The notes under the pieces: model-generated
Database searches by the model: none
Told to the model about the DNA's origin: nothing
Seen by the model: the letters and a program-made list of their open reading frames with translations, nothing else
Translations under genes and position numbers: made by a program
Virus record (IMG/VR): IMGVR_UViG_3300037264_006630
Span: 64,001 to 128,000 of that record
DNA: 64,000 bases
Strand: one strand, 5' to 3'
Origin: a virus
Shown: positions 8,131 to 50,392 of the stretch, one piece after another
Layout of the letters: every line of letters starts with the position of its first letter
How positions within the stretch are numbered: position 1 is the first letter of the stretch

Positions 8131-8233
8131 CATGTCCGAGTGATAGAGCACGTCGCGTGCCGATTCGTGCGCTCGTCGAAGTGTGCGAACCGGCTAGGAC
8201 GGCCACGGTCCGGAGTGTCGCTGGCGACGACAA
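8131..8233 (-). promoter_or_regulatory. Sigma54-type cassette A
   Basis: CGGCACG-CGAC-GTGCT (8162-8147), operator 8164-8189, palindrome 8215-8233, ATG 8133. Confidence 0.75.
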
Positions 8234-8294
8234 AATCGGTGGCCCCGAGACGGTGGCGGCTCGATTGTCGTTCGATGCCGGATGGTTAGCCTCG

Positions 8295-8313
8295 GTGTCG
8301 CCGCCGACGACAG
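8295..8313. repeat. Distal 19-bp palindrome of cassette A
   Basis: GTGTCGCCG-C-CGACGACAG, centre 80 bp from the proximal copy. Confidence 0.7.
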
Positions 8314-8331
8314 TGCGACGGGTTGGCGCGG

Positions 8332-11300
8332 TCAGGCCGCCAGGACTTCGTGCGCCAACTCCAAGAGGAAGTTGCCCCCGCCCGCATCGAACTGCGCCAA
8401 GCCGCCAGCCTCGTCGCCGTCGACCAGCTCGGCCGCTCGCATCTTCCGGGCGATCAGGTCGGTCGCTGTCGCCTGCATCGTGCCGGCGTAGGCCAGGAAC
8501 ACGACCCGCACGGGCTTGATCTGCCCGAGCCGCCAACTCCGGCGGATCGACTGGCGCAGCGTGTTGATGCTGTACTCGATCCCGTACTGGACGATCGTGT
8601 TGGCGAACATCAGGTCCAGTCCCGTCTCGACCAACCTCCCGTTGGTGAACATCACATCGAAGCCGTCCTCGCAGCGATCGCGCATCCACTGCTCCCGCTT
8701 CTCGGGATCGACGCTCGAGTCGAGTTGGACGACACGCAGGCCAGAGGCTTCGAGCGCGGCACGGACGCGGGGACGGGCATCGCGGCGCTGGGTCTGGGTG
8801 AAGAACACCAGCACCTTGCGACCCTTGGCGTGCTCCTCGCGCACCAGCGCGATCAGCTCATCGTCCTTGGGGTAGGAGTCCGGCTCGATTGCCGGGGCCG
8901 ACGCCAGGAGGTCGCCGCGCTCACCGTCGTCGTCGGTGTCGTAGATCTCCTCGCTCTGGTCCGGGCGATCGGGGTAGCCGAGGCACGCCTGGAGGTAGGC
9001 GCCGAGCGCCTTGGGGTGCTTGCGGATCAGCTTCTTCAACTTGCCCTGGAGGTCGGCAACCGCCGCGAGGACGGCCGGGTCCGGCTGCACCAAGCGCACT
9101 TCCTCGGTGTAGTCGGGCAGCTCGAGCCGCAGGTCCCGGAGCTTGACGAACACCGTGAAGGGCAAGAGCAGCGGGATCATGGCCGGCGACATGCCTGGGA
9201 TCTCGCGGATGCGCCCGCCGGTGGTGCCCTTCCGGTAGCCGTACGTGCTGGTGCGCTCCTCCTCCTTGTAGACCGTCTCGAAGAGGCCGTGATGCTCGAC
9301 GAAGGTCGCGCAGTCGGTGTGCTTGTACGTGCGGCGGAACGTCGGGGAGAGGCGGAAGAGCAGGTGGAAGATTGAGGACGCCCGGCCGCCGTAGAGCGTG
9401 CCGGTCATGACCAGCACCTTCCGCGCGCTCGAGATCAGTTGGTGGACGGCGCGCGCCTGGTCGGTCTCCCCCTTCGCGTGCTGGTGCGCTTCGTCGACCA
9501 CCAGCACGTAGCGGCGCGCGTAGTGGTCGTGGATGTAGGCCGCCAGCGGCCAGCGCTTGGTGCCCTTGTTCGTGATCGGCACGACCTGCCAGAGCGGGCT
9601 GCGGCACTCGCTGCACTTCGCCTGGACCTTCCGGTCGATGACCTTCACCTCGGCGCCGCATGCCGGGCAGGCGGCGAAGCTTCGGCGCTCCGTGACCATC
9701 TCCGTGCTGGTCTTGTACGGCCACTCGGTCGATCGGGTGGACACCTCGCGCTCGACGATCTCGCTACCCCGGGTCCAGGCCGACTCCCAGCGGCACCCGA
9801 GCTTGGCGACCTCCTTGCTCAAGACCAAGTAGGTGGCCGTCGGGGAGGCAAAGAACGCATCCACGTCCGCCAACTTCCGGGCGATCATCGCGACGCCGCG
9901 CCGGCCAGTGATGGCCGTGATCTCGCGGACCCACTTGCGGGTGAGATGGGTCGGGCAGACGACCACGACCTTCCGCGCGTGCGCCAACTCGGTGGCGACG
10001 GTGGCCACGCTCGTCTTGCCGCACCCCATTTCGCCGCACAGGATCACCTCCTTGTGCCTGCGCCAGCGGTGAACCACGGCCGCCGCCGCCTCGCGCTGGA
10101 TCGGGAGGATCTCTGGCTCGTCCCGGCCGGGCAGGATTCCAGGCGCGGACAGGCCAGTGAAGTCGTAGGCGTCGAGGTCGCTCGGCTTGAACTGCGGGAC
10201 GTGCGCAGCGAGGATGCCGGCCGCCAACTCGTCGCCGTGCTGCGCGAACCAAGCGCTGGTCTTGGGCTGGTCGTCCTCGACTTGCCACGAATCGAGCACG
10301 CCGGTCTTGAGGTCGAGCACCGAGAGGTACGAGGCGATGCGCTCGCGCACGGTCCGCTCGCCCTCGCCCTGGATCTCGACGGTGGTCTTCACGCTCCCGC
10401 CCTTCACGAGCAACCCCCGAGGGATCGGAGCCACCGGATCGCCGCCGCAGGTGGCGGCGCAACCGCCGGACATGTCGGTGAGCTCGAGCCCGTTCAGGGC
10501 GCCGGCCGCCAGGAGCATCGCTTGGTGACCAGGCCGCGGCGCGAGTAGCGGCGCCAGCTCGTGCGCGGCACCCTCGCCGGTGTGGGCGATCCACTGCTGC
10601 GACAGCCACGCGCCTTCATCGTCGGCGGGCGCGTAGCTCTCAGGCGCGCGGCCGATCAGATCGACCTTCGCGGCGATGACCGGGACGCGGATCGGATAGG
10701 GCTCGGCGTCGACCAGCGAGGGCAGACCGTCGGGGTCGTCGAAGCACTCCACGTTGCCGTAGCCGTAGGTCGAGTTGGTGCGCTGCGCGAAGACCACGAC
10801 TTGATCGAAGGCGGTGACCTCGGGGGCCGGGAAGGCGTAGGCACGGATCGACGAGTAGTGGTTCCGCATGAAGGTGCGGAAGGACTCGATGCGCAGGAGC
10901 TTCCGCGGCACGATGTAGATCAGCAAACCGTAGGGGGCGAGGAAGCGAGTCGTCGCGCGCAGGAATTCGATCTCCTGGCGCATGTTGGCGCCCGTCTCGT
11001 CGGTGCCCTCGTCGTACGGTGGGTTGAGGAACAGGATCCCGAACGGCCGCGCCGCCCGGTCCGGCTCGTGCGTGTCGGGGTTGAGCGCTTTGCCCTTGCC
11101 GTCGAGCACGGCGAGCTGGTGGTAGGAGCCGTGCCGCACCCAGATCATCACGCGAGCAGCCATCGCCGCCCGCTCCTGGTGCAGCTCGATGCCGTACGTG
11201 ACAGCGCCCCACAACTTGCCCAGCGCCGCGGCGGCGTACCCCTCGCCAGCGCAGGGATCGAGGAGCGCAGTGCCGGCCGATTCCGGGTCGAGCCGAACGA

Positions 11301-11376
11301 TGCGCCCGATCATCTGGGTCGGGCGGTCCGGGGTCGGGTAGTAGAGCGCCTTGGCGACGGCTTCGAGGCGCGCCAT
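8332..11376 (-). CDS. DNA N6-adenine/N4-cytosine methyltransferase fused to SF2 (SNF2-like) helicase
   Basis: LLDPCAGEG (motif I), YGIEL, FLNPPY (motif IV); CGEMGCGKT (Walker A), VVDEAHQ, MTGTLYGG, TNGRLVETGLDL, QSIRRSWRLGQ. Confidence 0.9.
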   Translation of the reverse strand: MARLEAVAKALYYPTPDRPTQMIGRIVRLDPESAGTALLDPCAGEGYAAAALGKLWGAVTYGIELHQERAAMAARVMIWVRHGSYHQLAVLDGKGKALNPDTHEPDRAARPFGILFLNPPYDEGTDETGANMRQEIEFLRATTRFLAPYGLLIYIVPRKLLRIESFRTFMRNHYSSIRAYAFPAPEVTAFDQVVVFAQRTNSTYGYGNVECFDDPDGLPSLVDAEPYPIRVPVIAAKVDLIGRAPESYAPADDEGAWLSQQWIAHTGEGAAHELAPLLAPRPGHQAMLLAAGALNGLELTDMSGGCAATCGGDPVAPIPRGLLVKGGSVKTTVEIQGEGERTVRERIASYLSVLDLKTGVLDSWQVEDDQPKTSAWFAQHGDELAAGILAAHVPQFKPSDLDAYDFTGLSAPGILPGRDEPEILPIQREAAAAVVHRWRRHKEVILCGEMGCGKTSVATVATELAHARKVVVVCPTHLTRKWVREITAITGRRGVAMIARKLADVDAFFASPTATYLVLSKEVAKLGCRWESAWTRGSEIVEREVSTRSTEWPYKTSTEMVTERRSFAACPACGAEVKVIDRKVQAKCSECRSPLWQVVPITNKGTKRWPLAAYIHDHYARRYVLVVDEAHQHAKGETDQARAVHQLISSARKVLVMTGTLYGGRASSIFHLLFRLSPTFRRTYKHTDCATFVEHHGLFETVYKEEERTSTYGYRKGTTGGRIREIPGMSPAMIPLLLPFTVFVKLRDLRLELPDYTEEVRLVQPDPAVLAAVADLQGKLKKLIRKHPKALGAYLQACLGYPDRPDQSEEIYDTDDDGERGDLLASAPAIEPDSYPKDDELIALVREEHAKGRKVLVFFTQTQRRDARPRVRAALEASGLRVVQLDSSVDPEKREQWMRDRCEDGFDVMFTNGRLVETGLDLMFANTIVQYGIEYSINTLRQSIRRSWRLGQIKPVRVVFLAYAGTMQATATDLIARKMRAAELVDGDEAGGLAQFDAGGGNFLLELAHEVLAA

Positions 11377-11957: not shown

Positions 11958-12203
11958 TCAGATGGCGCGGCGAACGAAGCGGATGTCCCGGGCGATCACG
12001 TCGCCGATGCGGTAGACGCCGTGCTGCACCGCAGCCAGGCCAGCGACGCTCATCACCACGGTCCCGTCCGCGATCGACTTCACCCGAGCGGTCACGTCCC
12101 GGCCCGCGTAGTCCTCGAAGACGCACAGACAGCCGGGCTCGAGGTCGGGCGCGATGGTCAGGTGGGCAGCGAGCTCGGGGGCCAGGATCGTCGCGTCGGG
12201 CAT
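11958..12203 (-). CDS. Hypothetical protein, first gene of cassette B
   Basis: ATG 14 nt after the -12 C. Confidence 0.7.
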   Translation of the reverse strand: MPDATILAPELAAHLTIAPDLEPGCLCVFEDYAGRDVTARVKSIADGTVVMSVAGLAAVQHGVYRIGDVIARDIRFVRRAI

Positions 12204-12303
12204 GTCAGGGTGTACTGCACGCGCGGTGCCACTTCGTGCGCGCGTGCAAGTGTACGAAAGCCCCACGCACGGGCCCCCGTGGGGGTGTCATCACGGACGA
12301 CAC
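12201..12303 (-). promoter_or_regulatory. Sigma54-type cassette B (left arm of divergent hub 1)
   Basis: TGGCACC-GCGC-GTGCA (12231-12216), operator 12233-12258, palindrome 12285-12303. Confidence 0.78.
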
Positions 12304-12376: not shown

Positions 12377-12395
12377 GCGTCGTCGCCACCGACAC
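12377..12395. repeat. Distal/shared 19-bp palindrome of hub 1
   Basis: GCGTCGTCG-C-CACCGACAC, centre 92 bp from 12285-12303. Confidence 0.6.
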
Positions 12396-12490: not shown

Positions 12491-12557
12491 TACGCGCGCT
12501 TATACGGGAGCGCAAACGCCGTGACTTGGCCCGCCGACTGCAATACAACTCGGCATG
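12491..12557 (+). promoter_or_regulatory. Sigma54-type cassette C (right arm of hub 1; weak operator)
   Basis: TGGCCCG-CCGA-CTGCA (12527-12542), ATG 12555; degenerate operator 12491-12516. Confidence 0.7.
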
Positions 12558-13454: not shown

Positions 13455-13465
13455 GCCGCCACCGT

Positions 13466-13523
13466 CTCGCGCGCTCCATCGAGTGTGTGAACTGGCACCC
13501 GAAGTGCAATGCATCCGACCATG
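13466..13523 (+). promoter_or_regulatory. Sigma54-type cassette D
   Basis: Operator 13466-13491, TGGCACC-CGAA-GTGCA (13493-13508), ATG 13521; no palindrome seen. Confidence 0.72.
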
Positions 13524-14426
13524 ACCAACACGACGATCCCGGCCGCGACCGCCGATCACCCCATCGCGAAGTGGTACACGGGCAAGGCCCGCCAGATCAT
13601 CCTGACCTTCGTCCTCCCCACGCTGGCGGAGGCCGAGGCTCTCGGCTACTGGCCGCCCAACACCAGCCGGAAGGTCGCCGCCGCCCTCAACAAGCAGACG
13701 GTGGCGGCGAGGTTCGGCAAGTCGCAGGAGCGCTACACCGGCGGCGGCCACAGCGACAGGTCGCCCGACCTGCTCTCCAACATCGGCGCCCCGGACGCGC
13801 ACCACGCCGAGACCGGATGGCAGCTCGTCCACGCGATGCAGTTCGGGCAAGTCGGCTACGCGCCCAAGGCGCTCGCCCTGGTCGAGAAACTGCGGCCCTA
13901 CGCCACGACGCCGGCGGCTGTGGCTGCGCTCGAGACGGCCGCGCAGTGGGCCCGGGACTTCGCCCCGATCGGAGAGCTGCTCGCCATCCTGGACGCCACC
14001 CGCCCGCGCCCCACGATCGTCCTCGGCTCGCTCTCCCCGACCGTCGCTGGCAACGTGGGAAAGCTGATGGGGATCGACTTCGCAACGATCGTCTACCCGA
14101 AGATCGAGTGGTCTTACAAGTGGATGGAGGTGATGGTGAAGGGGAAGCCGGTGCGGGCTCGCGTGAGCGTCGCGACGATCATCTGGCCGGACGGCACGCG
14201 TCACGACGTGTCGCGCTACGCCCACGGGTCCAAGTCGGGCAACGACCAGTGCCACGCCTGCGGCCACGCCATCTTCGACGGCTTCAACTGGTGCCCCCTC
14301 GTCGCCACCACCGCGGACGGTCCCGTGTCCCTGTGGGTCGGCCGGGACTGCGCCCGCAAGCTCTTTGCGGTCGACGTGAAGGGCGACGCGCTCTACGACC
14401 GCACCGCCGTCTCCGCCCCGGTGTGA
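13521..14426 (+). CDS. Hypothetical protein with C-terminal Zn-finger-like motif
   Basis: CHACGHAI...WVGRDCARKL. Confidence 0.75.
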   Translation: MTNTTIPAATADHPIAKWYTGKARQIILTFVLPTLAEAEALGYWPPNTSRKVAAALNKQTVAARFGKSQERYTGGGHSDRSPDLLSNIGAPDAHHAETGWQLVHAMQFGQVGYAPKALALVEKLRPYATTPAAVAALETAAQWARDFAPIGELLAILDATRPRPTIVLGSLSPTVAGNVGKLMGIDFATIVYPKIEWSYKWMEVMVKGKPVRARVSVATIIWPDGTRHDVSRYAHGSKSGNDQCHACGHAIFDGFNWCPLVATTADGPVSLWVGRDCARKLFAVDVKGDALYDRTAVSAPV

Positions 14427-14440: not shown

Positions 14441-14459
14441 GTGTCGGTGGTGACGACAG
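14441..14459. repeat. Distal 19-bp palindrome of cassette E
   Basis: GTGTCGGTG-G-TGACGACAG, 83 bp from the proximal copy. Confidence 0.7.
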
Positions 14460-14523
14460 GTAGCCGGCAACGCCGCGCGTTCACTGGAGAAAACACCCGG
14501 TATCCATAGGATTCCGGGTGTGG

Positions 14524-14632
14524 GTGTCGGTGGCGACGACACTCCGGACGCCGCGTCCTCCCCGGGCGCCACGTTTCGTGCGCTTCCACGCGTGTGCAAA
14601 CTGGCCCGCACCCTGCAATACACCCAGACATG
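14524..14632 (+). promoter_or_regulatory. Sigma54-type cassette E
   Basis: Palindrome 14524-14542 then TCCGGA, operator 14575-14600, TGGCCCG-CACC-CTGCA (14602-14617), ATG 14630. Confidence 0.8.
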
Positions 14633-15049: not shown

Positions 15050-15083
15050 CCCGCTGGCACGCAGCATGCTCAAGAGGAAAACC

Positions 15084-15398
15084 ATGGCCCGCATCGCTTT
15101 CGACCCCGCCGCCTACGCCCGCCTCTGCCGCCTCGCCACCGCTCTCCAGCGGCTCGTGCAGCGCTGGGAAGGCTACGCGGCCGACGCCCGGGACGATGCT
15201 ACCGAGGCCCGCTGGGTGCTCAACCTGGCGACCGCCCGCGCCTTCCAGCGCGACGTGCGCGCCGACCTCCTGACGGAGACCATCCGGAGCGAGATGGAGC
15301 CCCGACTCCTGACGCGCGCCGTCTACTCCGGCCCGGCTCCGGACCGCTGCAACAGCCGCGAGATCGACGCCGCGCCCTACGTCGCCGACGTTCGCTAA
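15084..15398 (+). CDS. Hypothetical protein
   Basis: GAGGA SD before ATG 15084. Confidence 0.7.
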   Translation: MARIAFDPAAYARLCRLATALQRLVQRWEGYAADARDDATEARWVLNLATARAFQRDVRADLLTETIRSEMEPRLLTRAVYSGPAPDRCNSREIDAAPYVADVR

Positions 15399-15407: not shown

Positions 15408-15447
15408 TTGACCGCGCACGGTTCGTGCGTATGATGGTGTGTATGAA
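15408..15447 (+). promoter_or_regulatory. Sigma70-type promoter with 26-bp operator (15422-15447)
   Basis: TTGACC-N16-TATGAT; TTCGTGCGT-ATGATGGT-GTGTATGAA. Confidence 0.82.

Positions 15448-29124: not shown

Positions 29125-29143
<19 letters not shown>
28820..29143 (+). CDS. Small Zn-ribbon protein
   Basis: CLVC...CARC; ATG overlaps the terL stop. Confidence 0.6.
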
Positions 29144-31178
<2,035 letters not shown>

Positions 31179-31182
<4 letters not shown>

Positions 31183-32848: not shown

Positions 32849-33030
32849 GAAACGTGCTCGTCCGCGGTCGCGAGGATGAGGTTCGGGACTCCATCGGCGA
32901 ACACGTACTCGCGGATCTCGCGGGTCTTGGTGCGACGGATGAGCCGGCCCTTGATGCCGTGCTCTCGGGCGAAGGCCAGCGCCTGGGCAGCGGTGCCATG
33001 GGTGAAGTCGGGCAGGTTCGCGGTGGTCAT
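32845..33030 (-). CDS. Hypothetical protein
   Basis: 61-aa ORF, stop overlaps the next GTG. Confidence 0.6.
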   Translation of the reverse strand: MTTANLPDFTHGTAAQALAFAREHGIKGRLIRRTKTREIREYVFADGVPNLILATADEHVS

Positions 33031-33061
33031 GCTCTGGAAGAGATGCACGTCGAGGGCCACT

Positions 33062-33991
33062 TCACGCGCTCGGTGAGGTGTGCGAAGCAGCGGCGGGGCC
33101 GGGCTCGAGGTAGCCGCAGCCGGCCGCCTTGGTCGCGCGTACCGCCCGGCCGCAGACCTTGCAGGGCTTGCGGTCGCGCTGCGGGGTGTAGGGCGTGGCG
33201 ACCCAGCGATCGAGCGGCGTGCCGGTCTGGGTCTTCGAGTTGTAGGCCATGATCGAGAGCTTGCGGCCGTTCTTCGCGGTGGGCGGCTTGTCGGCCTCGA
33301 GCTTGACGACCCGGGCAAACTGCTCGGGCAGGTCGACGGCGAAGCGCTGCCAGTCGCCCTTGGTGCCGTAGGGGCAGAACACGCAGGCGGACTTGCGCGG
33401 AACCGGGAAGCCGGCGCGCCGCACGAGATCCTCGCACGCGCAACGGCAGAGGCCGCGCTCGATCAGCGGGAAGCGGTTGCGGCGGATCGCGCCGCCCGGC
33501 CGGCGGCGGCGACGGCCGCCCGCGTTCGGATCCTTGTCTGCGCGGGATTCCTCGCCGCGCTCGAACCCGATCCAGACCTCGACCTCTTGGCCGGGGTACC
33601 GATCGTCGAGCCAGCTCTCGAAGCGCTCGACCTTGGCGACGGTGGTGCAGATCCGGTTCGGCCCGGCCATCGGGATCTGCTTCCGCGCGCGCAGCCACGC
33701 GAACAGGCTGCGCGCGTCGCGGACCGGGTAGTTGCTGTGGTCGATGCACACGAACTCGATCCCGTGGCGCGCGCACAGCGGCCGCACCACCTCGTCGATG
33801 TGGCGGTAGGTGCCGGGCCACTCGCCTGGATCGTCGGGGTGGCCGACGTCGATGAACACCACGACGTCGATCCGCTCGCCGCGCGCGATGCCCTCGACGA
33901 GCATGGCGAAGCTGTCGAGGCCACCGCCGAGCGAGAGCACGACGGGGCGGCGCCGGAGCCCCAGGTCGACGGTGAAGTCGAGCTGGTTCAC
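33062..33991 (-). CDS. PP-loop (PAPS-reductase-like) adenine nucleotide alpha hydrolase
   Basis: VVLSLGGGLDS, FIDVG..GEWPGTY, RICT..AK, WIGFERGE..R, FPLIE, KSACVFCPY. Confidence 0.8.
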   Translation of the reverse strand: MNQLDFTVDLGLRRRPVVLSLGGGLDSFAMLVEGIARGERIDVVVFIDVGHPDDPGEWPGTYRHIDEVVRPLCARHGIEFVCIDHSNYPVRDARSLFAWLRARKQIPMAGPNRICTTVAKVERFESWLDDRYPGQEVEVWIGFERGEESRADKDPNAGGRRRRRPGGAIRRNRFPLIERGLCRCACEDLVRRAGFPVPRKSACVFCPYGTKGDWQRFAVDLPEQFARVVKLEADKPPTAKNGRKLSIMAYNSKTQTGTPLDRWVATPYTPQRDRKPCKVCGRAVRATKAAGCGYLEPGPAAASHTSPSA

Positions 33992-34634: not shown

Positions 34635-34900
34635 GAGCGGCGGCCCTTCCCGGTCTTCCGGGTCTTGGCGGTGAGGATGGTGTACGCCTCGAGCGGCGTC
34701 AGGCGCGTCCCGTCGGCGGCGATGCAGCGCTCGGCGAGCCAGCGCACGGCGCCGCGCTTGGACTTGAGGGTCTTGCTCTCGACGCCGGTGAGGGCGAGCC
34801 AGCCGGCGTTGGTCTGGGTCATGCCGGTCGACCGGCTCTCGTTGTTGCCGAGGTCTTCGGTGGTGAGGCCGGGCCTGGTCGTGGTCGCCGTCGTGTCCAT
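34631..34900 (-). CDS. Hypothetical protein, first gene of cassette F
   Basis: ATG 14 nt after the -12 C. Confidence 0.72.
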   Translation of the reverse strand: MDTTATTTRPGLTTEDLGNNESRSTGMTQTNAGWLALTGVESKTLKSKRGAVRWLAERCIAADGTRLTPLEAYTILTAKTRKTGKGRRS

Positions 34901-34996
34901 GCCGAGGAGTATTGCACGGCCGGTGCCACTTCACGCGCATCAGCAGACGCACGAACGACGGCCGGCTTCCGTCCGGAGTGTCGTCGGCGACGACAC
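34898..34996 (-). promoter_or_regulatory. Sigma54-type cassette F
   Basis: TGGCACC-GGCC-GTGCA (34928-34913), operator 34930-34955, perfect palindrome 34978-34996 with TCCGGA. Confidence 0.8.
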
Positions 34997-35070
34997 TCGC
35001 TCCGGATTCGGTCGCGGAACCGACGATCCGGAGGCGGATCCACCTGCGACCACGCTGCGTTGGCCGCCGC

Positions 35071-35089
35071 CTGTCGCCGTGGCCGACAC
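35071..35089. repeat. Distal 19-bp palindrome of cassette F
   Basis: CTGTCGCCG-T-GGCCGACAC, 93 bp from the proximal copy. Confidence 0.65.
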
Positions 35090-35723: not shown

Positions 35724-36001
35724 GACATCCCCATCAGGTTCGCGGCCTCGGCGTCGGTGAGGATGATGTCGGTGCCGCAGTCCAGGTAGGCGTGCTTGCC
35801 GGTGCTCGGTTGCCAGCAATAGAGCAGGCGGGCCCCGGTGCGCGTGGTGAACGGGACCTCGGTGCCGCCGCACGCCGGAATCCAGGGGCCCTGCGCCTTG
35901 CGCGCATCGGCCGCGTCGAGCAACTCGACGAGCGTACGCTGGCGCGGTCCGAAAAAGGGGTACGGCTCAATCGGGCGGTCGGGGGTGGCGTCGGTCATCA
36001 T
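35720..36001 (-). CDS. Conserved phage hypothetical protein
   Basis: PACGGTEVPF.TRTG.RLLYCWQPSTGKHAYLDCGTDIIL is a motif I recognise from other phages. Confidence 0.75.
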   Translation of the reverse strand: MMTDATPDRPIEPYPFFGPRQRTLVELLDAADARKAQGPWIPACGGTEVPFTTRTGARLLYCWQPSTGKHAYLDCGTDIILTDAEAANLMGMS

Positions 36002-36056
36002 GGTCGAGATGCTTTGCACGCGGTGTGCCGTTCGTGCGCCTAATGATGTGTACGAT
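35999..36056 (-). promoter_or_regulatory. Sigma54-type cassette G
   Basis: CGGCACA-CCGC-GTGCA (36030-36015), operator 36031-36056, ATG 36001; no palindrome seen. Confidence 0.72.
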
Positions 36057-36484: not shown

Positions 36485-36858
36485 TTGGCCCGTTCCGCGC
36501 GGAAGCGGCAGTCCCGGGCCCGGTCCGCCCACGAGGTGAGACCGGTCTCCGTCGCCGCCCGATCGAGCCGCGCGGCCAGCGCCACCAGCTCGTCGCGGCT
36601 GGCGCTGTAGTCGCGCCGCGACGCCTGCTCGTACCACTCGTTGACGCCGAGCTCACCCAGGGTCGCCGCGTAGGCCAAGCCCTCGCTGCGGGTGATGACC
36701 TCGCCCCGCTCGTCCCGCAGGAGGTCGCCGAACTCGTCGGTCGTCTCGCTTGGCGCCAGCGCCGCCTCCATCATCGCGGCCCCGTGCCAGTCGGCCGAGG
36801 TGCGGCGCTCGATGTGGAGGGAGCGGAGCTGGGCCAGCGTCAGGAGCGTCGTGGTCAT
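36481..36858 (-). CDS. Hypothetical protein, first gene of cassette H
   Basis: ATG 14 nt after the -12 C. Confidence 0.72.
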   Translation of the reverse strand: MTTTLLTLAQLRSLHIERRTSADWHGAAMMEAALAPSETTDEFGDLLRDERGEVITRSEGLAYAATLGELGVNEWYEQASRRDYSASRDELVALAARLDRAATETGLTSWADRARDCRFRAERAK

Positions 36859-36912
36859 GCCTCGATCATAAGCACGCGGCGTGCCGTTCGTGCGCTTGTT
36901 CATGTGCGCGAA
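36856..36912 (-). promoter_or_regulatory. Sigma54-type cassette H (left arm of divergent hub 2)
   Basis: CGGCACG-CCGC-GTGCT (36886-36871), operator 36887-36912. Confidence 0.78.
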
Positions 36913-37027: not shown

Positions 37028-37046
37028 CTGACTGCGGCGGCGACAG
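37028..37046. repeat. Distal/shared 19-bp palindrome of hub 2
   Basis: CTGACTGCG-G-CGGCGACAG, 92 bp from 37120-37138. Confidence 0.55.
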
Positions 37047-37119
37047 GCGCGCGCCAACCCGGCGTGACTGCCAGTCTTTACGCCGCCGGACGCGGCCCCT
37101 ACGGTCGAAATCGTGGCGA

Positions 37120-37222
37120 GTGTCGTCGGTGGTGACAGGGGCAGCGCCGGCGTGGGTGTGGTGTTTCGTGCGCTTGGACGTGCGCACGAAGTGGCACGTA
37201 GCATGCTCTACATCCAGACATG
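37120..37222 (+). promoter_or_regulatory. Sigma54-type cassette I (right arm of hub 2)
   Basis: Palindrome 37120-37138, operator TTCGTGCGC-TTGGACGT-GCGCACGAA 37165-37190, TGGCACG-TAGC-ATGCT (37192-37207), ATG 37220. Confidence 0.82.
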
Positions 37223-38951: not shown

Positions 38952-38970
38952 GTGTCAGCCACGACGACAG
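38952..38970. repeat. Distal 19-bp palindrome of cassette J
   Basis: GTGTCAGCC-A-CGACGACAG, 93 bp from the proximal copy. Confidence 0.7.
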
Positions 38971-39044
38971 ATGATGGCCAAGTCAACGCAACCGCTGGCT
39001 GGAATGCTCGTCGAGCGCACGGAATCGCCGCGGATCTAGGCCGA

Positions 39045-39143
39045 GTGTCGTCGCCGACGACACTCCGGACTCGGGTCCCCCGCGTTTCGTGCGCCTGAAC
39101 GTACGCGCGAACCGGCACGCCGACTGCAATACACCTCGACATG
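39045..39143 (+). promoter_or_regulatory. Sigma54-type cassette J
   Basis: Perfect palindrome 39045-39063 then TCCGGA, operator 39086-39111, CGGCACG-CCGA-CTGCA (39113-39128), ATG 39141. Confidence 0.82.
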
Positions 39144-39543: not shown

Positions 39544-39583
39544 TTGACCTCGCCAGTTTCGTGCATATCATGGAGTGTATGAA
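39544..39583 (+). promoter_or_regulatory. Sigma70-type promoter with 26-bp operator (39558-39583)
   Basis: TTGACC-N16-TATCAT; TTCGTGCAT-ATCATGGA-GTGTATGAA. Confidence 0.8.
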
Positions 39584-40949
39584 CATGACGCCCGACGCCG
39601 TTTACGTCCCCGCGCACGCGCTCGCGTCGATCCGCGCCGCGCTCGACAAGGCCACCAACGCCGACCGCCGCCACGCCACGCGCCTCAACCTCGCGGTTCC
39701 GGCCGCGCCGGTTCTCACCGTCGGTGAGGAGCGCCAGGTCCGCGAGTGCTGCGCCTGCCGCCACCAGGCCACCGACATCACGCAGTGGATGTCGGCCTGC
39801 TGCACCGCGCCGGCCCGCCTGCTCACCCTGGTCCCCGTGACGATCAGCGCGCCGCGCCCGACCTGCGGCGCCTGGGAGTTGCTCGCGGTGGTCGAGCGCC
39901 AGCCGGCCGACTTCGAGGGCAAGCCATCGCCGAACCTCCTGCGCCGCGTCCCCGGCTCGACCGAAGATCTAGATCTCGGGCGCTGGCGCACCGGCGACGC
40001 CACCCACTGCGACCACTGCGACGTGGATCGCCGCCGGAACGAGACCTTCCTGGTGCTCTCGCTCGAGAACGGCGAGATCAAGCAGGTCGGCCGCCAGTGC
40101 CTCGCCGCCTTCCTCGGCGACCAGTCCTACGAGTCGATCATCCGTCGCCTCGCCTGGCGCGAGTTGCTCACCGACGGTGGTGACGACGGCGAGGGCGGGT
40201 ACGGTGGTGGTGGTCGCTGGGGCGAGCCGGCGCCTGACATCGAGACGGTGCTGGCGCTCACCGCGACGGTCATCCGCAACGACGGCTGGCTGTCGAAGAC
40301 CGCCGCGCGCGAGCGCTTCGACGGGATCCGGGCGACCGCGGACCAGGTCTACTCGCTGCTCAACCCGCCGCGCGAGGGTGAGCAGCTCCGCGAGTGGCGC
40401 AAGGAGATCGTCCGCCTGGCCCCGCAGCCGACCGACATGGAGCACGCGACGGCGGCGCTCACCTGGGTTCGCGACATGGCCCCGACCTCGGACTACGACT
40501 GGTCGATCCACACCGCCGGCCGGCTCACCCACGTCGAGCACTTCGGGATCGTCTGTTCGATCGTTCCGGCCTACGACCGCGTGATCGGTCGCGAGATCGA
40601 GAAGCGCACCCGGCGCGCCGCAGTACCGGCCTCGGTCCACGTCGGTGCCGTCGGCGAGAAGCTCTCCGCCACCGGCATCTGCGAGAGCGCCCGCGCCGTT
40701 CCCGGCGACCAGTGGGGCACCCGGACTGTGATCACGATCGTGGCCGCCGATGGCGCGGTGGTGCAGTGGTGGAAGTCCGGGATCGTCGATGAGGTCATCG
40801 CGGGCCGCACCGTCACCATCACCGGCAAGGTGAAGAGCCACGGCCAGTACGACGGCCGCGCGATCACCACTCTCACCCGCTGCAAGCTGGTGGTGCTGCC
40901 CGAGGCAGCGCCCGACTGCGGCGGCGAGCAGACGGCGGTGGCGTCGTGA
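39579..40949 (+). CDS. Phage protein with Zn-binding motif and C-terminal OB-fold-like domain
   Basis: CDHC...RRNETF...KQVGRQCLAAFLG; HVGAVGEKL...VTITGKVKSHGQYDG...TTLTRCK. Confidence 0.75.
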   Translation: MNMTPDAVYVPAHALASIRAALDKATNADRRHATRLNLAVPAAPVLTVGEERQVRECCACRHQATDITQWMSACCTAPARLLTLVPVTISAPRPTCGAWELLAVVERQPADFEGKPSPNLLRRVPGSTEDLDLGRWRTGDATHCDHCDVDRRRNETFLVLSLENGEIKQVGRQCLAAFLGDQSYESIIRRLAWRELLTDGGDDGEGGYGGGGRWGEPAPDIETVLALTATVIRNDGWLSKTAARERFDGIRATADQVYSLLNPPREGEQLREWRKEIVRLAPQPTDMEHATAALTWVRDMAPTSDYDWSIHTAGRLTHVEHFGIVCSIVPAYDRVIGREIEKRTRRAAVPASVHVGAVGEKLSATGICESARAVPGDQWGTRTVITIVAADGAVVQWWKSGIVDEVIAGRTVTITGKVKSHGQYDGRAITTLTRCKLVVLPEAAPDCGGEQTAVAS

Positions 40950-41188
40950 GCTCGGCCCTGTTGCAGCCGCGAGCCGGCATCATCGTCGTGCGGGTCGGGC
41001 AGCTCGTCGTGGCCGGCAACGACTCCTACCAACTCGTCGCCCTGGGCGGCGTCTACGGCGAGGAGGTGCGGCTCTTGGGCAACAAGCCCTACCGGAAGTC
41101 CCGCGCCAAGCCGCTCGGCTGGCGTCGGACCGCGCCACGTCGGCGCACCTGTCGTCCGTGCCGACAGCCGGATGCCAAGGCCGCGTAG
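40946..41188 (+). CDS. Hypothetical protein
   Basis: GTGA overlap; 80 aa. Confidence 0.5.
   Translation: MSSALLQPRAGIIVVRVGQLVVAGNDSYQLVALGGVYGEEVRLLGNKPYRKSRAKPLGWRRTAPRRRTCRPCRQPDAKAA
41149..41167. repeat. Distal 19-bp palindrome of cassette K (inside the upstream ORF)
   Basis: CTGTCGTCC-G-TGCCGACAG, 93 bp from the proximal copy. Confidence 0.65.
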
Positions 41189-41241: not shown

Positions 41242-41327
41242 CTGTCGTCGCGGACGACACTCCGGACCGCCGCGCGGGACGAGATCGTGCGCACTTGGAG
41301 GCGCGTGAACTTGGCACCGCTCATGCT
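41242..41327 (+). promoter_or_regulatory. Sigma54-type cassette K (no proximal ATG)
   Basis: Palindrome 41242-41260 then TCCGGA, operator 41284-41309, TGGCACC-GCTC-ATGCT (41312-41327). Confidence 0.75.
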
Positions 41328-43994: not shown

Positions 43995-44096
43995 GTGTCG
44001 TCGGCGACTACAGGCCGGCGACCACTCCGGAACCAGACTTCGCACACCTGCACGAGCGCACGAACCGGCACACCCCGTGCAGTACCAGGCACCATG
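43995..44096 (+). promoter_or_regulatory. Sigma54-type cassette L
   Basis: Palindrome 43995-44013, operator 44039-44064, CGGCACA-CCCC-GTGCA (44066-44081), ATG 44094. Confidence 0.8.
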
Positions 44097-45029: not shown

Positions 45030-45445
45030 CGATCACGGTCGACGACTCCACCGTCCACTGCGGCGCCATCCGGCACCTCTGCGCGACCAAGCGTACCGCA
45101 CAGATCACGGCGGCCACGCTCGCGCTCCGTGACGCTGGGTGGACCGTCGTTGGTCCCGCGTCTGGCCTCGGCTACCGCCGCCCCCTCGCGCTGCCTGGCG
45201 AGCGCATGTGCCAGCCGCTCGACGGGTCGCTCGCTGACCAGCGCGCACAGGGCTTCACCGTGTGGCGCCACGACGGCTCCATCAACCCTGACACCGGTGT
45301 TGGCCCGCGCACCGCCGCGCGAGCGATCACGATCGACGCCTGCGCCGGTCTGCCTCTGCTCGTGACCGAGGAGCGCGGCGATGTCGCCGAGGCGCGCGAG
45401 ATCATCGAGTGGTACATCGGGTCGATCGTGCAGGCCAACCCGTGA
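45026..45445 (+). CDS. Hypothetical protein
   Basis: GTGA overlaps. Confidence 0.65.
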   Translation: MTITVDDSTVHCGAIRHLCATKRTAQITAATLALRDAGWTVVGPASGLGYRRPLALPGERMCQPLDGSLADQRAQGFTVWRHDGSINPDTGVGPRTAARAITIDACAGLPLLVTEERGDVAEAREIIEWYIGSIVQANP

Positions 45446-46032
45446 CCGTCGGCCGCCTCAAGATCCTCCGCATCGAGGTGGATGGGCACTTCCGCGGCTC
45501 GTCGGATGTGCCCCGCCCCTGGGTGGCGCAGATCGACGGGCCGGACGCTCGCTGGGGCCTGGCTCGCACGTTCATTCAGTGCCTGCGCGACTGGCGTGGC
45601 GCTCACCGCGCGAACAGCGGCAACCTCTACGGCGTGGTCGCGGCGTTCCCGCTCCACGACGGCAAGCTCTACGAGGTGTGCCGCCTGCGCGGCAAGTCGA
45701 GCAAGCGCCACGTCGCGCGCGAGTTCTGGCGCGTGGTCGACGGCAAGATGGTCGAGCTCGAGCCGAGCGAGGCGCTCGCTCTTGCCGATGGCTACGATGG
45801 CCCCGCGGTCGAGCACACGGTCGCCGACGGGACCAAGGTGGCGCTCGTCACCGGGCTCGGGACCCCGACGCCGCTCGGGTTCGTGATGGCGGACGGCCGG
45901 CGCCTGTTCCGGCTGCGCGACGGCCACATCCACGAGGTCATGACCGACACCGGCCGCGAGCTCCTCGCGGTGCGAGACGGCGATGTCGCGTCCATCTCGG
46001 ACATGGAGGCGTTGGCGTGGCTGATGCGATGA
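45442..46032 (+). CDS. Hypothetical protein with internal domain duplication, upstream of the IbrA-like gene
   Basis: WVAQIDG...FPLHDGKLYEV...REFWRVVDG...EALALA repeated as KVALVTG...FRLRDGHIHEV...RELLAVRDG...EALAWL. Confidence 0.7.
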   Translation: MTVGRLKILRIEVDGHFRGSSDVPRPWVAQIDGPDARWGLARTFIQCLRDWRGAHRANSGNLYGVVAAFPLHDGKLYEVCRLRGKSSKRHVAREFWRVVDGKMVELEPSEALALADGYDGPAVEHTVADGTKVALVTGLGTPTPLGFVMADGRRLFRLRDGHIHEVMTDTGRELLAVRDGDVASISDMEALAWLMR

Positions 46033-47243
46033 AGCGACCGATCGGGATCGACGTCCTCGCCGCCGCTCGCCAGCGGATCGCGTGGGTGTTCGACGCCTTC
46101 CCGCGGATCTACCTGTCCGGCCCCAGCGGCAAGGACTCGTCGGTGATGATGCACCTGGTCTGCCAGGAGGCGCGTCGCCGCGGTCGGCGGGTGGGCGTGC
46201 TGTTCCTCGATCTCGAGGCGCAGTACCGCCTCACCATCGACCACGTCCGCGACATGTTCGCGCTCTACGCCGACGTGATCGATCCGTTCTGGGTCGCCCT
46301 GCCGCTCAACCTGCGCAACGCGGTGAGCCAGATCGCCCCGTTCTGGACGTGCTGGGATCCTGCGGCCGAGCCGCTCTGGGTGCGGCCCCGGGAGCCGGGC
46401 AGCATCGCCGACCCCGAGCGCTTCCCGTTCTACCGCCACGCGATGGAGTTCGAGGAGTTCGTCGAGGGGTTCGGCAACTGGTACGCGGGCGACGAGGCGT
46501 GCGCGTGCTTCGTCGGCATCCGCGCCAACGAGTCGCTCAACCGCTGGCGGGCGATCGTCCGGCGCCGGAAGTCGCGGCTCGAGGGCCGCGCCTACACCAC
46601 CTGGCGCGGTGACCAGCTCGTGAACGTCTACCCGATCTACGACTGGCGCACCGAGGATATCTGGACCTACGTCGGCCGCGAGCGCGCGGCCTACAACCGC
46701 ATCTACGACGGCATGCACCAGGCCGGGATGTCGATCCACCAGATGCGGATCTGCCAGCCCTACGGGGATGACCAGCGCCGGAGTTTGAACCTTTACCACG
46801 TCCTCGAGCCCCTCACCTGGACCCGCGTCGTCGCGCGCGTGGCCGGCGCCAACCAGGGCGCGCTCTACGCCGGCAAGCGCGGCAACATCCTCGGCAACGG
46901 CAACATCGTGCTGCCCGCCGGCCACACCTGGCAGAGCTTCGTGGAGTTCCTGCTCGCCTCGATGCCGCAGGCCGAGGCAGACAACTACCGCGACAAGATC
47001 GCGGTGTTCATCCAGTGGTGGCGCAACCGGTACGGCCTCGAGATGACCGAGGACGACGACCCCGATCTGGTCGGCACGTACAAGCGCCAGCCGACGTGGA
47101 AGCGGGTGGCCAAGGTCATCCTCAAGAACGACTTTCTCTGCAAGGGTCTGAGCTTCTCGCAGCAACGCAGCGAGCCGAGCTCGTACGACCGGTACAAGAA
47201 GCTGATGCGCGACCGCCGCGCGAGATGGGGCATCTACGCATGA
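46029..47243 (+). CDS. IbrA/YbdN-like PAPS-reductase-family (PP-loop) protein with DUF3440-like tail
   Basis: YLSGPSGKDSSV, FLDLEAQY, WVALPLNLRNAVS, FVGIRANESLNRW, VYPIYDWRTEDIW, MRICQPYGDDQR, ILKNDFLCKGLSF. Confidence 0.88.
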   Translation: MKRPIGIDVLAAARQRIAWVFDAFPRIYLSGPSGKDSSVMMHLVCQEARRRGRRVGVLFLDLEAQYRLTIDHVRDMFALYADVIDPFWVALPLNLRNAVSQIAPFWTCWDPAAEPLWVRPREPGSIADPERFPFYRHAMEFEEFVEGFGNWYAGDEACACFVGIRANESLNRWRAIVRRRKSRLEGRAYTTWRGDQLVNVYPIYDWRTEDIWTYVGRERAAYNRIYDGMHQAGMSIHQMRICQPYGDDQRRSLNLYHVLEPLTWTRVVARVAGANQGALYAGKRGNILGNGNIVLPAGHTWQSFVEFLLASMPQAEADNYRDKIAVFIQWWRNRYGLEMTEDDDPDLVGTYKRQPTWKRVAKVILKNDFLCKGLSFSQQRSEPSSYDRYKKLMRDRRARWGIYA

Positions 47244-47614
47244 CCGACGACAAGGACAAGAACGGCATCCCGCTGGACCTCGTGCGCGCTGCGCGCCGCG
47301 AGGAGTCGCTCCGCGGACGGGTCCACCTGTGCAGCACCCGCCGCGAGCCGCTCCTGGTCGATGGGCAGGTGGTCGGCTTCGTCACTCCGCGCCAGGTCGG
47401 CGACGCCTGGCGGCACGGCCCGATCTACGTGGCCCCGGGCTTCCGCAGTCGGGGACTCGTGGCCGCCTACTACGCCTCCCACCCGGAGCGGATCTGCGTG
47501 GCGTTCGTCGCCGACAGTAACCGCTCGTCGCGGTCTGCGCACGTCGCGGCTGGGTTCGCCAACTGGCGCCGCGGCAAGGACGGCTGGTTCATGCGGCGGG
47601 AGGCGCAGCCGTGA
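47240..47614 (+). CDS. Small GNAT-fold acetyltransferase-like protein
   Basis: VVGF...GPIYVAPGFRSRGL (motif A), NRSS..AHVAAGF (motif B). Confidence 0.65.
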   Translation: MTDDKDKNGIPLDLVRAARREESLRGRVHLCSTRREPLLVDGQVVGFVTPRQVGDAWRHGPIYVAPGFRSRGLVAAYYASHPERICVAFVADSNRSSRSAHVAAGFANWRRGKDGWFMRREAQP

Positions 47615-48240
47615 TCGAGGCCCTGACCGAGCAGCTCTGCGCCGAGCTCGCGCAGCTCGACGAGGACGCGCGGATCGACGCACTCAACGCCGTGCGCACC
47701 GCCCTGCACGCGGTGTCGCCGCTGCGCGCCGAGCCGGTCGACCTGGTGCTGTGGGTCCGGGCCGAGCAGGTCCGCGGCAACGACTACAACCCCAACAGCG
47801 TAGCGCCGCCCGAGATGCGGCTCCTCCAGCACAGCGTCCTGGCCAACGGCTTCACCATGCCGATCGTCACCCATGAGATCGACGACGGCGTGACCGAGGT
47901 GGTCGATGGGTTCCACCGCCACCGCATCGGCAAGGACACCCCGGAGATCCGCACGCGCTGTCACGCCCGCCTGCCGGTCACCCGGATCCGCGCCGACCGC
48001 GCCGACACCGGCGCCCGCATCGCCGCCACCATCGAGCACAACCGCGCCCGCGGTGAGCATCAGGTCGGCCGCATGAGCGAGATCGTCCGCATGCTGTACC
48101 AGCAGGGCTGGAGCGAGACGCGGATCATGAAGGAGTTGGGGATGGAGGCCGACGAAGTGTTGCGCCTCAAGCAGATGACCGGGCTCGCTGACCTGTTCGC
48201 GGGCCGTGAATTCTCCGAGGCATGGGAGCCGAACGAATGA
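47611..48240 (+). CDS. IbrB/YbdM-like ParB/Srx-domain protein
   Basis: NDYNPNSVAPPEMRLL..SVLANGFTMPIV, VVDGFHRH, ATIEHNRARGEH, ELGMEADEVLRLKQMTG. Confidence 0.9.
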   Translation: MIEALTEQLCAELAQLDEDARIDALNAVRTALHAVSPLRAEPVDLVLWVRAEQVRGNDYNPNSVAPPEMRLLQHSVLANGFTMPIVTHEIDDGVTEVVDGFHRHRIGKDTPEIRTRCHARLPVTRIRADRADTGARIAATIEHNRARGEHQVGRMSEIVRMLYQQGWSETRIMKELGMEADEVLRLKQMTGLADLFAGREFSEAWEPNE

Positions 48241-48993: not shown

Positions 48994-49011
48994 TGCGCCA
49001 CCTCGTCACGC

Positions 49012-49030
49012 CTGTCGTCGGCGCCGACAC
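49012..49030. repeat. Distal 19-bp palindrome of cassette M
   Basis: CTGTCGTCG-G-CGCCGACAC, 95 bp from the proximal copy. Confidence 0.7.
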
Positions 49031-49106
49031 CTGCACCGCAAGCCCGCAGGCCGGCACGTCGTTCGAGGGACTGGCGAGATCGCGCACGGTCACCATCCGT
49101 TCCGCG

Positions 49107-49208
49107 CTGTCGCCGCCAGCGACACCCGGCCCCGATCGCCCCCAGCATCCGCGCCACCTTCCGTCCACCGCCAACCTGGCACCCCTCGTGCTCTACACCT
49201 CCACCATG
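49107..49208 (+). promoter_or_regulatory. Sigma54-type cassette M (operator absent)
   Basis: Palindrome 49107-49125, TGGCACC-CCTC-GTGCT (49177-49192), ATG 49206. Confidence 0.72.
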
Positions 49209-49364: not shown

Positions 49365-49365
49365 G

Positions 49366-49635: not shown

Positions 49636-49788
49636 CCGCTCCCCGTTCACGCGCTCCAGCCTGGCCTTCCCCAGCGGGCGCCCGGGGCTGTCGATGGGAC
49701 CTCACCTGTCGATAGCACCCCTCACCCGGGTTTGGTAGCTGACCTCGGAGGTCAGACTGGAACGCGCGAGCAGCCAAGGATTACGATC

Positions 49789-50070
49789 ATGCCCACCACC
49801 AAGACCCTCACTCACCCGACGATCCACCTGAACGGCTCCGGCCGCCAGCACCTCCTGGACGGCTACAGCAACGCGCGCGACAAGGTCCGCGAGCTCGAGT
49901 CCGCGCTCATGGCGGCGGCGCCCAACGGCCGCGACTACTACCCGCAGGGCGAGTCCGCGATCGGCCGTGCCATCGCCGAGCACTGCTCGCGCCTGGACCG
50001 CCTCCGGGCGCTCGATGCCGAGTTGGCCGAGCTCCAGCAGGCCGTGGCCGACGCGTCGGGTCGCCGGTGA
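49789..50070 (+). CDS. Conserved phage hypothetical protein
   Basis: PTIHLNGS...APNGRDYYPQG motif recognised from other phages. Confidence 0.75.
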   Translation: MPTTKTLTHPTIHLNGSGRQHLLDGYSNARDKVRELESALMAAAPNGRDYYPQGESAIGRAIAEHCSRLDRLRALDAELAELQQAVADASGRR

Positions 50071-50273
50071 TGTCGGCCCTGTTCTACCGGCTGCACCAGA
50101 CCGGACGCGGCGCGCGCGACTTCACCGAGCGGTACGAGGCGATCGCGCAGTGGCGGCACGCAACCACCCAGGTGGAGGACGGCGAGAGCACCAGCCTCTA
50201 CGCGGTCCGGGAGAGCAAGAACGAGGAGGAGCTCCTGGCTCACTACCAGCCGGTCCCGCACCGGATGGTGTAG
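50067..50273 (+). CDS. Hypothetical protein
   Basis: GTGA overlap. Confidence 0.55.
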   Translation: MMSALFYRLHQTGRGARDFTERYEAIAQWRHATTQVEDGESTSLYAVRESKNEEELLAHYQPVPHRMV

Positions 50274-50291
50274 CTATGCAACTTCTGCGGA

Positions 50292-50392
50292 CTGGAGTCG
50301 GCGACGACAGTTGAGCCGCTACTCCGGACCAGCCTTCGCGCACATGAACGTGCGCACGAACGGCACGCCGCGTGCTGTAGTATCCGGGCATG
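50292..50392 (+). promoter_or_regulatory. Sigma54-type cassette N
   Basis: Palindrome 50292-50310, operator TTCGCGCAC-ATGAACGT-GCGCACGAA 50335-50360, CGGCACG-CCGC-GTGCT (50361-50376), ATG 50390. Confidence 0.8.

Follow-up and report, generated by a model that had tools for sequence, protein, structure and literature searches.

We analysed a 64,000-nucleotide window of a phage genome (bases 64,001-128,000 of the 184,943-bp virus record IMGVR_UViG_3300037264_006630; coordinates below are those of the window unless stated), in which copies of a TGT...ACA palindrome accompany a class of promoters with a GGCAC-N6-TGC core. The best single explanation for these palindromes is that they are enhancers for a bacterial enhancer-binding protein (bEBP) of the host, acting at phage promoters of the sigma-54 type. 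Judging from the sequence, we give this reading a probability of about one half. It accounts for the sequence of the core, the fixed distance between palindrome and core, the pattern of conservation, the parallels found in cellular genomes, and the lack of an activator in the phage.

Palindromes upstream of phage promoters

The palindrome is 17-19 bp long, with the core TGTCGnnG-N-CnnCGACA, and is present in 18 copies in the window. Aligning the ten modules described below gives a fuller form, aGTGTCGTCG-N-CGACGACACt. Using the pattern TGTCGTCG-N-CGACGACA with at most 3 mismatches, and 100 shuffles as a control, 21 matches were found in the window, versus 1.62 ± 1.33 expected (shuffle maximum, 5). 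Seventeen of these were sites already listed in the original prediction, made from the letters of the window. Its eighteenth site (37028-37046), the left half of which is degenerate, is only half a site; all coordinates held. The other four matches (20989, 25807, 37911 and 56055) lack the outer TGT/ACA and look like chance. When the whole 184,943-bp genome was scanned, true copies, i.e. those with the outer TGT/ACA kept, were found only at 8.2-50.3 kb of the window, and the block that holds them also contains all 16 promoters of the GGCAC-N6-TGC class.

Ten copies are proximal to a promoter, and the near-fixed distance first reported for them was found again: from the centre of the palindrome to the first G of GGCAC-N6-TGC, we measured 60, 60, 61, 62, 62, 63, 63, 64, 64 and 70 bp. 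Eight of the ten have a distal partner 80-95 bp further out, and the spacings given earlier (80, 92, 83, 93, 92, 93, 93 and 95 bp) agreed exactly with ours. The two copies said to be perfect, at 34978 and 39045, have 0 mismatches each. On the promoter side, where TCCGGA had been described as frequent, TCCGGA(C) starts 10 bp from the centre in half of the proximal sites (5/10), and 22 bp from it in 2 more. Four distal copies (centres 8304, 14450, 35080 and 38961) lie 16-34 nt past a stop codon, and the one partner thought to sit within a coding sequence (41149-41167) is indeed inside the 3' end of open reading frame (ORF) 40946-41188. A motif G(G/C)CAA(C/G) recurs 7-9 nt to the promoter side of most distal palindromes, those of the related phage L011 (see below) included; examples are 35055-35065, 37052-37060, 38975-38985, 41172-41182 and 14465-14472. 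It is a counterpart to the proximal TCCGGAC flank. The 18 copies are the following.

8215..8233, proximal palindrome for promoter 8161 (-): TTGTCGTCGCCAGCGACAC with TCCGGA; centre 63 bp from GG
8295..8313, distal palindrome, 80 bp beyond the proximal one: 2 mismatches to the consensus; about 20 nt after the stop of ORF 8332-11376
12285..12303, proximal palindrome for promoter 12230 (-): centre 64 bp from GG
12377..12395, distal palindrome, 92 bp beyond the proximal one: promoter 12528 (+) lies 142 bp downstream of it
14441..14459, distal palindrome, 83 bp beyond the proximal one: stop of ORF 13521-14426 lies 16 nt before it
14524..14542, proximal palindrome for promoter 14603 (+): centre 70 bp from GG; TCCGGA flank
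34978..34996, perfect proximal palindrome for promoter 34927 (-): centre 60 bp from GG
35071..35089, distal palindrome, 93 bp beyond the proximal one
37028..37046, weak distal palindrome, 92 bp beyond the proximal one: CTGACTGCG in the degenerate left half, CGGCGACAG in the right half
37120..37138, proximal palindrome for promoter 37193 (+): centre 64 bp from GG
38952..38970, distal palindrome, 93 bp beyond the proximal one: stop of ORF 38361-38921 lies 32 nt before it
39045..39063, perfect proximal palindrome for promoter 39114 (+): centre 60 bp from GG; TCCGGA flank
41149..41167, distal palindrome, 93 bp beyond the proximal one: within an ORF, at its 3' end (see above)
41242..41260, proximal palindrome for promoter 41313 (+): centre 62 bp from GG; TCCGGA flank
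43995..44013, proximal palindrome for promoter 44067 (+), no distal partner: centre 63 bp from GG; TCCGGA 22 bp from centre
49012..49030, distal palindrome, 95 bp out
49107..49125, proximal palindrome for promoter 49178 (+): centre 62 bp from GG; promoter without 26-bp operator
50292..50310, proximal palindrome for promoter 50362 (+), no distal partner: centre 61 bp from GG

A promoter class with a sigma-54-like core

All 16 cores of the class lie at 8.1-50.4 kb, each pointing towards a gene. GGCAC-N6-TGC is followed by an ATG at the standard distance 15 times, 27-28 nt from the GG and 14-15 nt after the C of the -12 element; the sixteenth core (41313) is followed by a Shine-Dalgarno-led gene. 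The ORFs opened by these ATGs are 52-384 codons long, with a G+C content at third codon positions (GC3) of 0.88-0.98, which argues that the ATGs are real start codons, leaving no room for a ribosome-binding site. Going downstream, the order of a module is palindrome, TCCGGAC, a variable spacer, a 26-bp inverted repeat (hereafter the operator), 1-3 bp, yGGCAC-N6-TGC, an AT-richer patch (nnTACAcC) and the ATG. A proximal palindrome is present at 10 of the 16 cores, with the operator between palindrome and core in 9 of these 10 modules; one core (49178) has the palindrome only.

Across 23 promoters from four phage sequences, GGC-C-N6-TGC is invariant (23/23). The GG has a T before it in 16 of them, GGCAC is followed by G in 13, and the base after TGC is usually A or T. 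The observed core, TGGCACG-N4-nTGCW, matches at nearly every conserved position the sigma-54 consensus TGGCACG-N4-TTGCW, which is said to be that of the Barrios et al. compilation, and its GG and GC doublets are exactly 10 bp apart, as the sigma-54 class requires. No overlapping sigma-70 site was found at these promoters: a consensus scan of 17 kb gave one sigma-70-like site, at a different promoter. A sigma-70 -10 or extended -10 reading of the core was rejected, the -7 T being missing from the AT-richer patch; moreover, the TACA patch after TGC is not conserved in the relative L011, which argues against a -10 hexamer. A reading of the core as that of an extracytoplasmic function (ECF) type sigma factor was rejected on spacing.

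Two side observations concern these promoters. ATGACC(A), encoding Met-Thr, opens the leaderless gene at about 10 of the 23 promoters in the four phage sequences (e.g. 12555, 13521, 14630, 36858 (-), 37220 and 49206), and its frequency suggests selection on the initial transcribed or translated bases. The core at 15056-15086 and its upstream context (gacctcgc-gcctgaccc-ct GGCACGC) are kept in L011 around 11173; the two copies are orthologous and form a differently controlled member of the class. The 16 promoters are listed below.

8131..8189 (-), operator, GGCAC-N6-TGC core and ATG: ORF 7663-8133, GC3 0.88
12201..12258 (-), operator, core and ATG
12491..12557 (+), displaced operator-like repeat, GGCCC core and ATG: nearest palindrome 142 bp away
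13464..13523 (+), degenerate operator, core and ATG: no palindrome within 400 bp
14575..14632 (+), operator, GGCCC core and ATG
15056..15086 (+), core and ATG, no operator, no palindrome: orthologous copy at L011 11173
33028..33086 (-), operator, GGCCC core and ATG, no palindrome
34898..34955 (-), operator, core and ATG
35999..36056 (-), operator, core and ATG, no palindrome
36856..36912 (-), operator, core and ATG: closest palindromes lie upstream, at about 152 and 244 bp
37165..37222 (+), perfect operator, TGGCACG-N4-ATGC core and ATG
39086..39143 (+), operator, core and ATG
41284..41326 (+), operator and core: no ATG at the usual distance; Shine-Dalgarno-led gene follows
44039..44096 (+), operator, core and ATG
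49178..49208 (+), core and ATG, no operator
50335..50392 (+), operator, core and ATG of a PAPS-reductase-like gene

Conservation in related phages

Relatives were found by a protein search with the large terminase (L011 and L015) and by a pattern scan of metagenomes (L112). The terminases of L011 and L015, the two contigs that carry one, are respectively 76% and 53% identical to that of this phage. L011 comes from the samples SRR14751619-21, L015 from Hainich groundwater, and L112 from the same site (Hainich data ERZ1292619/ERZ1292625). All three carry the same modules, with palindrome, TCCGGAC flank and ATG distance all kept. The proximal centre is 62-64 bp from the GG, with one case at 71 bp and one at 50 bp, the latter being a single palindrome common to two divergent promoters, and the distal partner is 93-94 bp further out. 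The 26-bp repeat of L015 and L112 is different, having become a CCRTGCGC-ttag-CCRTGCGC-like sequence, and their palindrome is unchanged. A palindrome that stays fixed while the neighbouring operator co-diverges is what is expected if it is read by a conserved factor, e.g. one of the host. No modules were seen near the terminase gene in relatives with 40-53% terminase identity (L016, L018, L077-L079), nor near it at 30 terminase loci from genome bins. The metagenome pattern scan returned 120 loci, with real modules only in L112. In IMG/VR, the exact palindrome and CGACGACACTCCGGAC each gave isolated matches attributable to chance.

Comparison of 27 palindrome copies from the four phage sequences bore out the earlier remark that the outer TGT/ACA is the best conserved part, TGTCG/CGACA being kept in 23-27 of the 27. 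At the inner positions, changes affect one side and are not compensated on the other: pair 7 reads T-A in 10 copies and G-A in 6, with different combinations in the remainder. Position 7 is paired in only 14 of the 27. Most copies have 1-4 unpaired positions, and pairing at the flanking ±9 positions is random. T-runs are absent after every copy, and a terminator scan picked up none of them. Based on the lack of both compensatory changes and T-runs, we conclude that the palindromes are almost certainly protein-binding sites rather than terminators, with a pattern of the dimer type.

Lack of an activator in the phage, and parallels in cellular genomes

The source genome has direct terminal repeats, is rated complete, and contains 69% G+C. 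Megablast against cultured phages and a terminase scan of IMG/VR gave no match that would indicate a close relative. No profile match to Sigma54_DBD, Sigma54_activat, Sigma70_r2, HTH_8 or HU/IHF was found in the whole phage genome, nor any GAFTGA-like motif in its six frames: the absence of a GAFTGA activator, originally noticed for the window, is true of the entire genome, and a cognate bEBP is lacking there. No Pfam match to an RNA polymerase was found among the large phage proteins scanned. The phage would therefore depend on the host polymerase, and with neither a bEBP nor a sigma-54 of its own, the enhancer reading needs a host factor.

Hints to the host are at the level of phyla. Among genome bins encoding terminase relatives, about 20 of 30 are Planctomycetota and none is actinobacterial; the best two bin terminases, from a Polyangiaceae bin and an Armatimonadetes bin, are 35-37% identical. 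Sigma-54 (Sigma54_DBD) is encoded in 5 of the 5 terminase-relative bins tested, and was not found in the control genomes of Corynebacterium and Deinococcus, in line with general knowledge. The nearest named cellular dCTP deaminases, with about 55% identity, belong to Verrucomicrobiota, Bacteroidota (Sphingobacteriales) and Bdellovibrionota. DnaB gave only 26-30% identity with plasmids and phages, and TnpB comparison pointed to mixed taxa. Altogether we find it likely, well beyond even odds, that the host carries sigma-54.

Cellular genomes (301 Planctomycetota and 301 Myxococcota) were searched for TGTCG-N7-CGACA followed 40-68 nt later by GGCAC-N6-TGC, with the reversed pattern as a control. 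There were 7 matches versus 1 for the control in Planctomycetota, and 9 versus 3 in Myxococcota. Nine of these 16 matches have full TGGCAC...TTGC-type cores, often with a second palindrome 20-30 bp upstream. The distances from centre to GG are 57-63 or 71-74 bp, one helical turn apart, compared to 60-64 and 70 bp in the phage. Two sites precede fliO, with a 374- or 404-aa bEBP (Sigma54_activat and HTH_8, no receiver domain) within about 4 kb:

L209 (G009), about 8955-9461, Planctomycetota fliO-operon site: TGTCG-N7-CGACA 62 or 71 bp upstream of GG
L210 (G179), about 9547-10122, Planctomycetota fliO-operon site: as above

A third site, upstream of an aldehyde dehydrogenase-like gene, has a 656-aa bEBP encoded divergently from it. 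These nine examples, three of them near bEBP genes, mean that a palindrome of this type at such a distance is a genuine bEBP enhancer layout in Planctomycetota and Myxococcota.

Proposed mechanism

The palindromes would be upstream activator sites bound by a dimeric activator, most likely an AAA+ enhancer-binding protein of the host that belongs to the NtrC family and has a Fis-type helix-turn-helix (HTH), and the target would be a phage promoter class read by the host RNA polymerase carrying sigma-54. In this layout, an optional distal palindrome near -180 and a proximal one near -87, often with TCCGGAC, would be followed by a variable spacer, the 26-bp operator at about -54 to -28, and yGGCAC-N6-TGC as the -24/-12 elements; the AT-richer patch would melt. 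At sigma-54 promoters, the first transcribed base lies 11-13 nt past the -12 GC. Counting 12 nt from the -12 C leads here to a purine 2 nt ahead of the ATG, and the leader would thus measure about 2 nt; the nearly leaderless mRNA so predicted fits the ATG as every first codon. From these sequence features we infer the sigma-54 dependence, the transcription start, the binding of a host bEBP, and activation by DNA looping.

Upstream sites of bEBPs lie about 80-150 bp upstream of the start. The phage palindromes, centred near -87 and -180 and conserved as sequence, not as structure, are in keeping with this layout. The likeness to known sigma-54/bEBP systems (NifA with TGT-N10-ACA, NtrC, AcoR-type, flagellar FlbD/FleQ-type) extends to the GG-N10-GC core matching TGGCAC-N5-TTGC and to a 17-bp TGT...ACA palindrome about 85-95 bp upstream of the expected start, with no -35/-10. 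The phage differs from them by the lack of its own bEBP and sigma-54, by pairs about 93 bp apart rather than adjacent, by the 26-bp operator at the IHF position, by nearly leaderless transcripts, and by some promoters devoid of sites.

Several observations weigh against this mechanism. Five cores (12528, 13494, 33058, 36029 and 36885) have the operator and no palindrome within 140 bp, and the core at 15056 has neither. Sigma-54 promoters always need an activator, so these palindrome-less cores would require one acting from a distance, as bEBPs are known to do, or from solution. Pairs spaced by about 93 bp are unlike the adjacent or ~30-bp-spaced bEBP sites of the host examples and of textbook cases, and the usual position of IHF is occupied by the operator abutting the -24 box. 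The closest cultured match of the capsid, at 30% identity, is Streptomyces phage Kromp. Leaderless starts occur throughout this phage, and their widespread use is characteristic of Actinobacteria and Deinococcota, groups without sigma-54. Finally, neither the exact phage palindrome nor a multi-site regulon was present in any of the cellular genomes searched, and the regulon search gave no match in 41 Gemmataceae or 101 Gemmatimonadota genomes.

The initial proposal of bEBP enhancers thus stands in part. Protein-site behaviour, the fixed distance, a sigma-54-like core in 23 promoters, the cellular parallels and the absence of a phage bEBP speak for it; the five palindrome-less cores and the atypical pair spacing do not, and a host rpoN with a matching bEBP is suggested by weak, phylum-level hints.

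A probable 26-bp operator shared with sigma-70-type promoters

The 26-bp inverted repeat, TTCGTGCGC-N8-GCGCACGAA, was not part of the original prediction. It occurs in two settings. At 19 places genome-wide, it lies 12 nt after TTGACn, in the form TTGACn-N12-[TTCGTGCGTAnnnT...GCGCATGAA]. There the repeat holds a TAnnnT -10 hexamer, and its right half (GCGCATGAA) holds a leaderless ATG. Examples in the window are:

15422-15447, repeat at a sigma-70-type promoter
39558-39583, same
51556-51581, same
55676-55701, same
7394-7419 (-), same
1766-1791 (-), same

In the second setting, found at least 11 times, the repeat adjoins the GGCAC box and is centred near -41. Since in the first setting it spans the -10 and the start codon, a protein bound there would block the sigma-70 promoter. 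The repeat is, to go by its position, probably bound by a distinct phage regulator, one repressing the sigma-70 class and modulating the GGCAC class; at the latter, the protein may repress, or replace IHF in bending the DNA. Among 133 small ORFs scanned with Pfam, only three ribbon-helix-helix (NikA-like) proteins and a sub-threshold HTH_3 match came up. These three proteins, encoded in the left arm before the window, are candidate binders of the operator:

genome 12467-12571, ribbon-helix-helix (NikA-like) protein
genome 15124-15237 (+), ribbon-helix-helix (NikA-like) protein
genome 17878-17994 (-), ribbon-helix-helix (NikA-like) protein

Alternative explanations

The only clear HTH regulator found in the phage belongs to the LuxR/GerE type, and is encoded next to a putative GHKL-type ATPase:

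3889-4233 (-), LuxR/GerE-type HTH protein, 114 aa: Pfam GerE 9.8e-12; last in a co-oriented run downstream of promoter 8161
4234-5766 (-), 510-aa protein with a weak HATPase_c (GHKL) match: directly upstream of the GerE gene, same co-oriented run

The palindromes could then be operators for a phage regulator, either this protein or an unrecognised one, which would tune phage-specific promoters, not necessarily of the sigma-54 type, up or down, an oligomer bridging same-face sites about 93 bp apart. We find this less likely than the enhancer reading, and yet a serious rival, the main one among the alternatives. LuxR-family boxes are 16-20-bp TGT...ACA palindromes, read by GerE-family dimers, and the phage palindrome resembles them in size and in its outer TGT/ACA. 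The GerE gene is itself downstream of a palindrome-bearing promoter, and a homologue 59% identical to its product is present in the same groundwater samples as the module-bearing L015 and L112; however, no module is found beside this homologue (L218-L221). LuxR-type activators also usually bind at about -40 to -60 of sigma-70 promoters, whereas the palindromes here are at -87 and -180.

The ~18 sites, found only on this phage and its relatives, also recall the dispersed operators of phiC31 (CIR) or of P1 (C1), where many copies of one palindrome are spread over early and middle promoters. In phiC31 there are 15-30 copies of CTACTCACGTGAGTAG-type 12-mers, the sequence of which is unrelated to the phage palindrome. 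As a direct analogue phiC31 was rejected: it has no promoter-like GGCAC-N6-TGC (the handful of matches to the pattern seem due to chance), and the parallel is one of concept only. Operators of phiC31 and P1 overlap the core promoter, which fits the separate 26-bp operator instead; the palindromes, about 62 bp upstream of the core, are too far away to occlude polymerase. No cognate repressor of this type was identified in the phage.

The spacing of 80-95 bp, about 8-9 helical turns, suits repressor loops better than bEBP pairs; lac O1 and O3, for comparison, are 92 bp apart, again two like sites 8-9 turns apart on the same face of the helix. In contrast to lac, no phage site overlaps a promoter core, and no tetrameric repressor was identified. 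The members of the class without palindrome would be explained if the sites modulate and are not obligatory. Against a phage regulator, the palindrome remained unchanged across phages with 53%-identical terminases while the other operator co-diverged, and the sigma-54 match of the core and the host parallels would be left unexplained.

A very unlikely possibility is that the palindromes, mainly the distal copies 16-34 nt after co-oriented stop codons, are RNA hairpins serving as terminators or stabilisers of the transcripts upstream of them. Four distal copies (8304, 14450, 35080 and 38961) do lie directly past a stop codon, and perfect copies could form 8-9-bp stems. The absence of T-runs, of terminator calls and of covariation (14/27 paired at position 7) is opposed to this, as are the outer bases, best conserved as in a protein half-site, and the proximal copies, tied to a promoter at a fixed distance and not to gene ends. 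These four stop-proximal copies may have a minor role at transcript ends, which would not be the main signal. Least probable of all is a single duplicated promoter cassette carrying the palindrome by descent, without a function of its own: the block order is the same in ten modules, but spacers differ in sequence while the blocks stay conserved, the blocks combine differently (palindrome only, operator only, neither), and sequence and distances are retained in diverged phages.

The gene block and its surroundings

The 42-kb block (8.2-50.3 kb) encodes DNA-modification-type enzymes, a methyltransferase-helicase, and many proteins of unknown function; in PHROGs, most first genes of these operons have no assigned function. 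It includes three PAPS-reductase-like genes and one ParB-like nuclease-domain gene (33062-34396 (-), 45381-47243, 47611-48240 and 50390-51544), which suggests a DNA- or nucleotide-modification theme. The PAPS-reductase-like gene at 50390-51544 is the first behind a promoter of the GGCAC class; the other genes of that set are further downstream. The structural landmarks of the window are:

27240-28820, large terminase (526 aa)
28891-31182, portal
61345-62772, major head protein

The terminase of L011 (4552-7158) is 868 aa long, with a LAGLIDADG-type intein insert that is absent from the 526-aa protein of this phage.

Discussion

Phages are known to time their genes with sigma-70 promoters combined with phage repressors or activators, with phage sigma factors or sigma appropriation, or with phage RNA polymerases. 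A phage with a gene class driven from sigma-54 promoters and enhancers was not described in the literature searched, and we know of none with an enhancer-driven sigma-54 promoter class. A broader picture can be offered tentatively, at clearly less than even odds. A large uncultured phage lineage would run about 16 promoters via the host sigma-54, copying the enhancer of a host AAA+ activator at -87, with a second copy at -180, and encoding no activator; a single operator-binding protein of the phage, placed over the -10 in 19 early sigma-70 promoters and at position -41 in the sigma-54 promoters, would switch the form of polymerase in use.

For a phage, controlling an entire gene block by sigma-54 and a host activator would be unusual. 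If true, expression of the 42-kb block would depend on the activity state of a signal-responsive ATPase of the host, which would couple infection to host physiology. The block would also be a compact natural set of sigma-54 promoters with graded enhancers: paired, single, shared between divergent promoters, or absent. The palindrome itself could be used as a probe for the host and for its activator.

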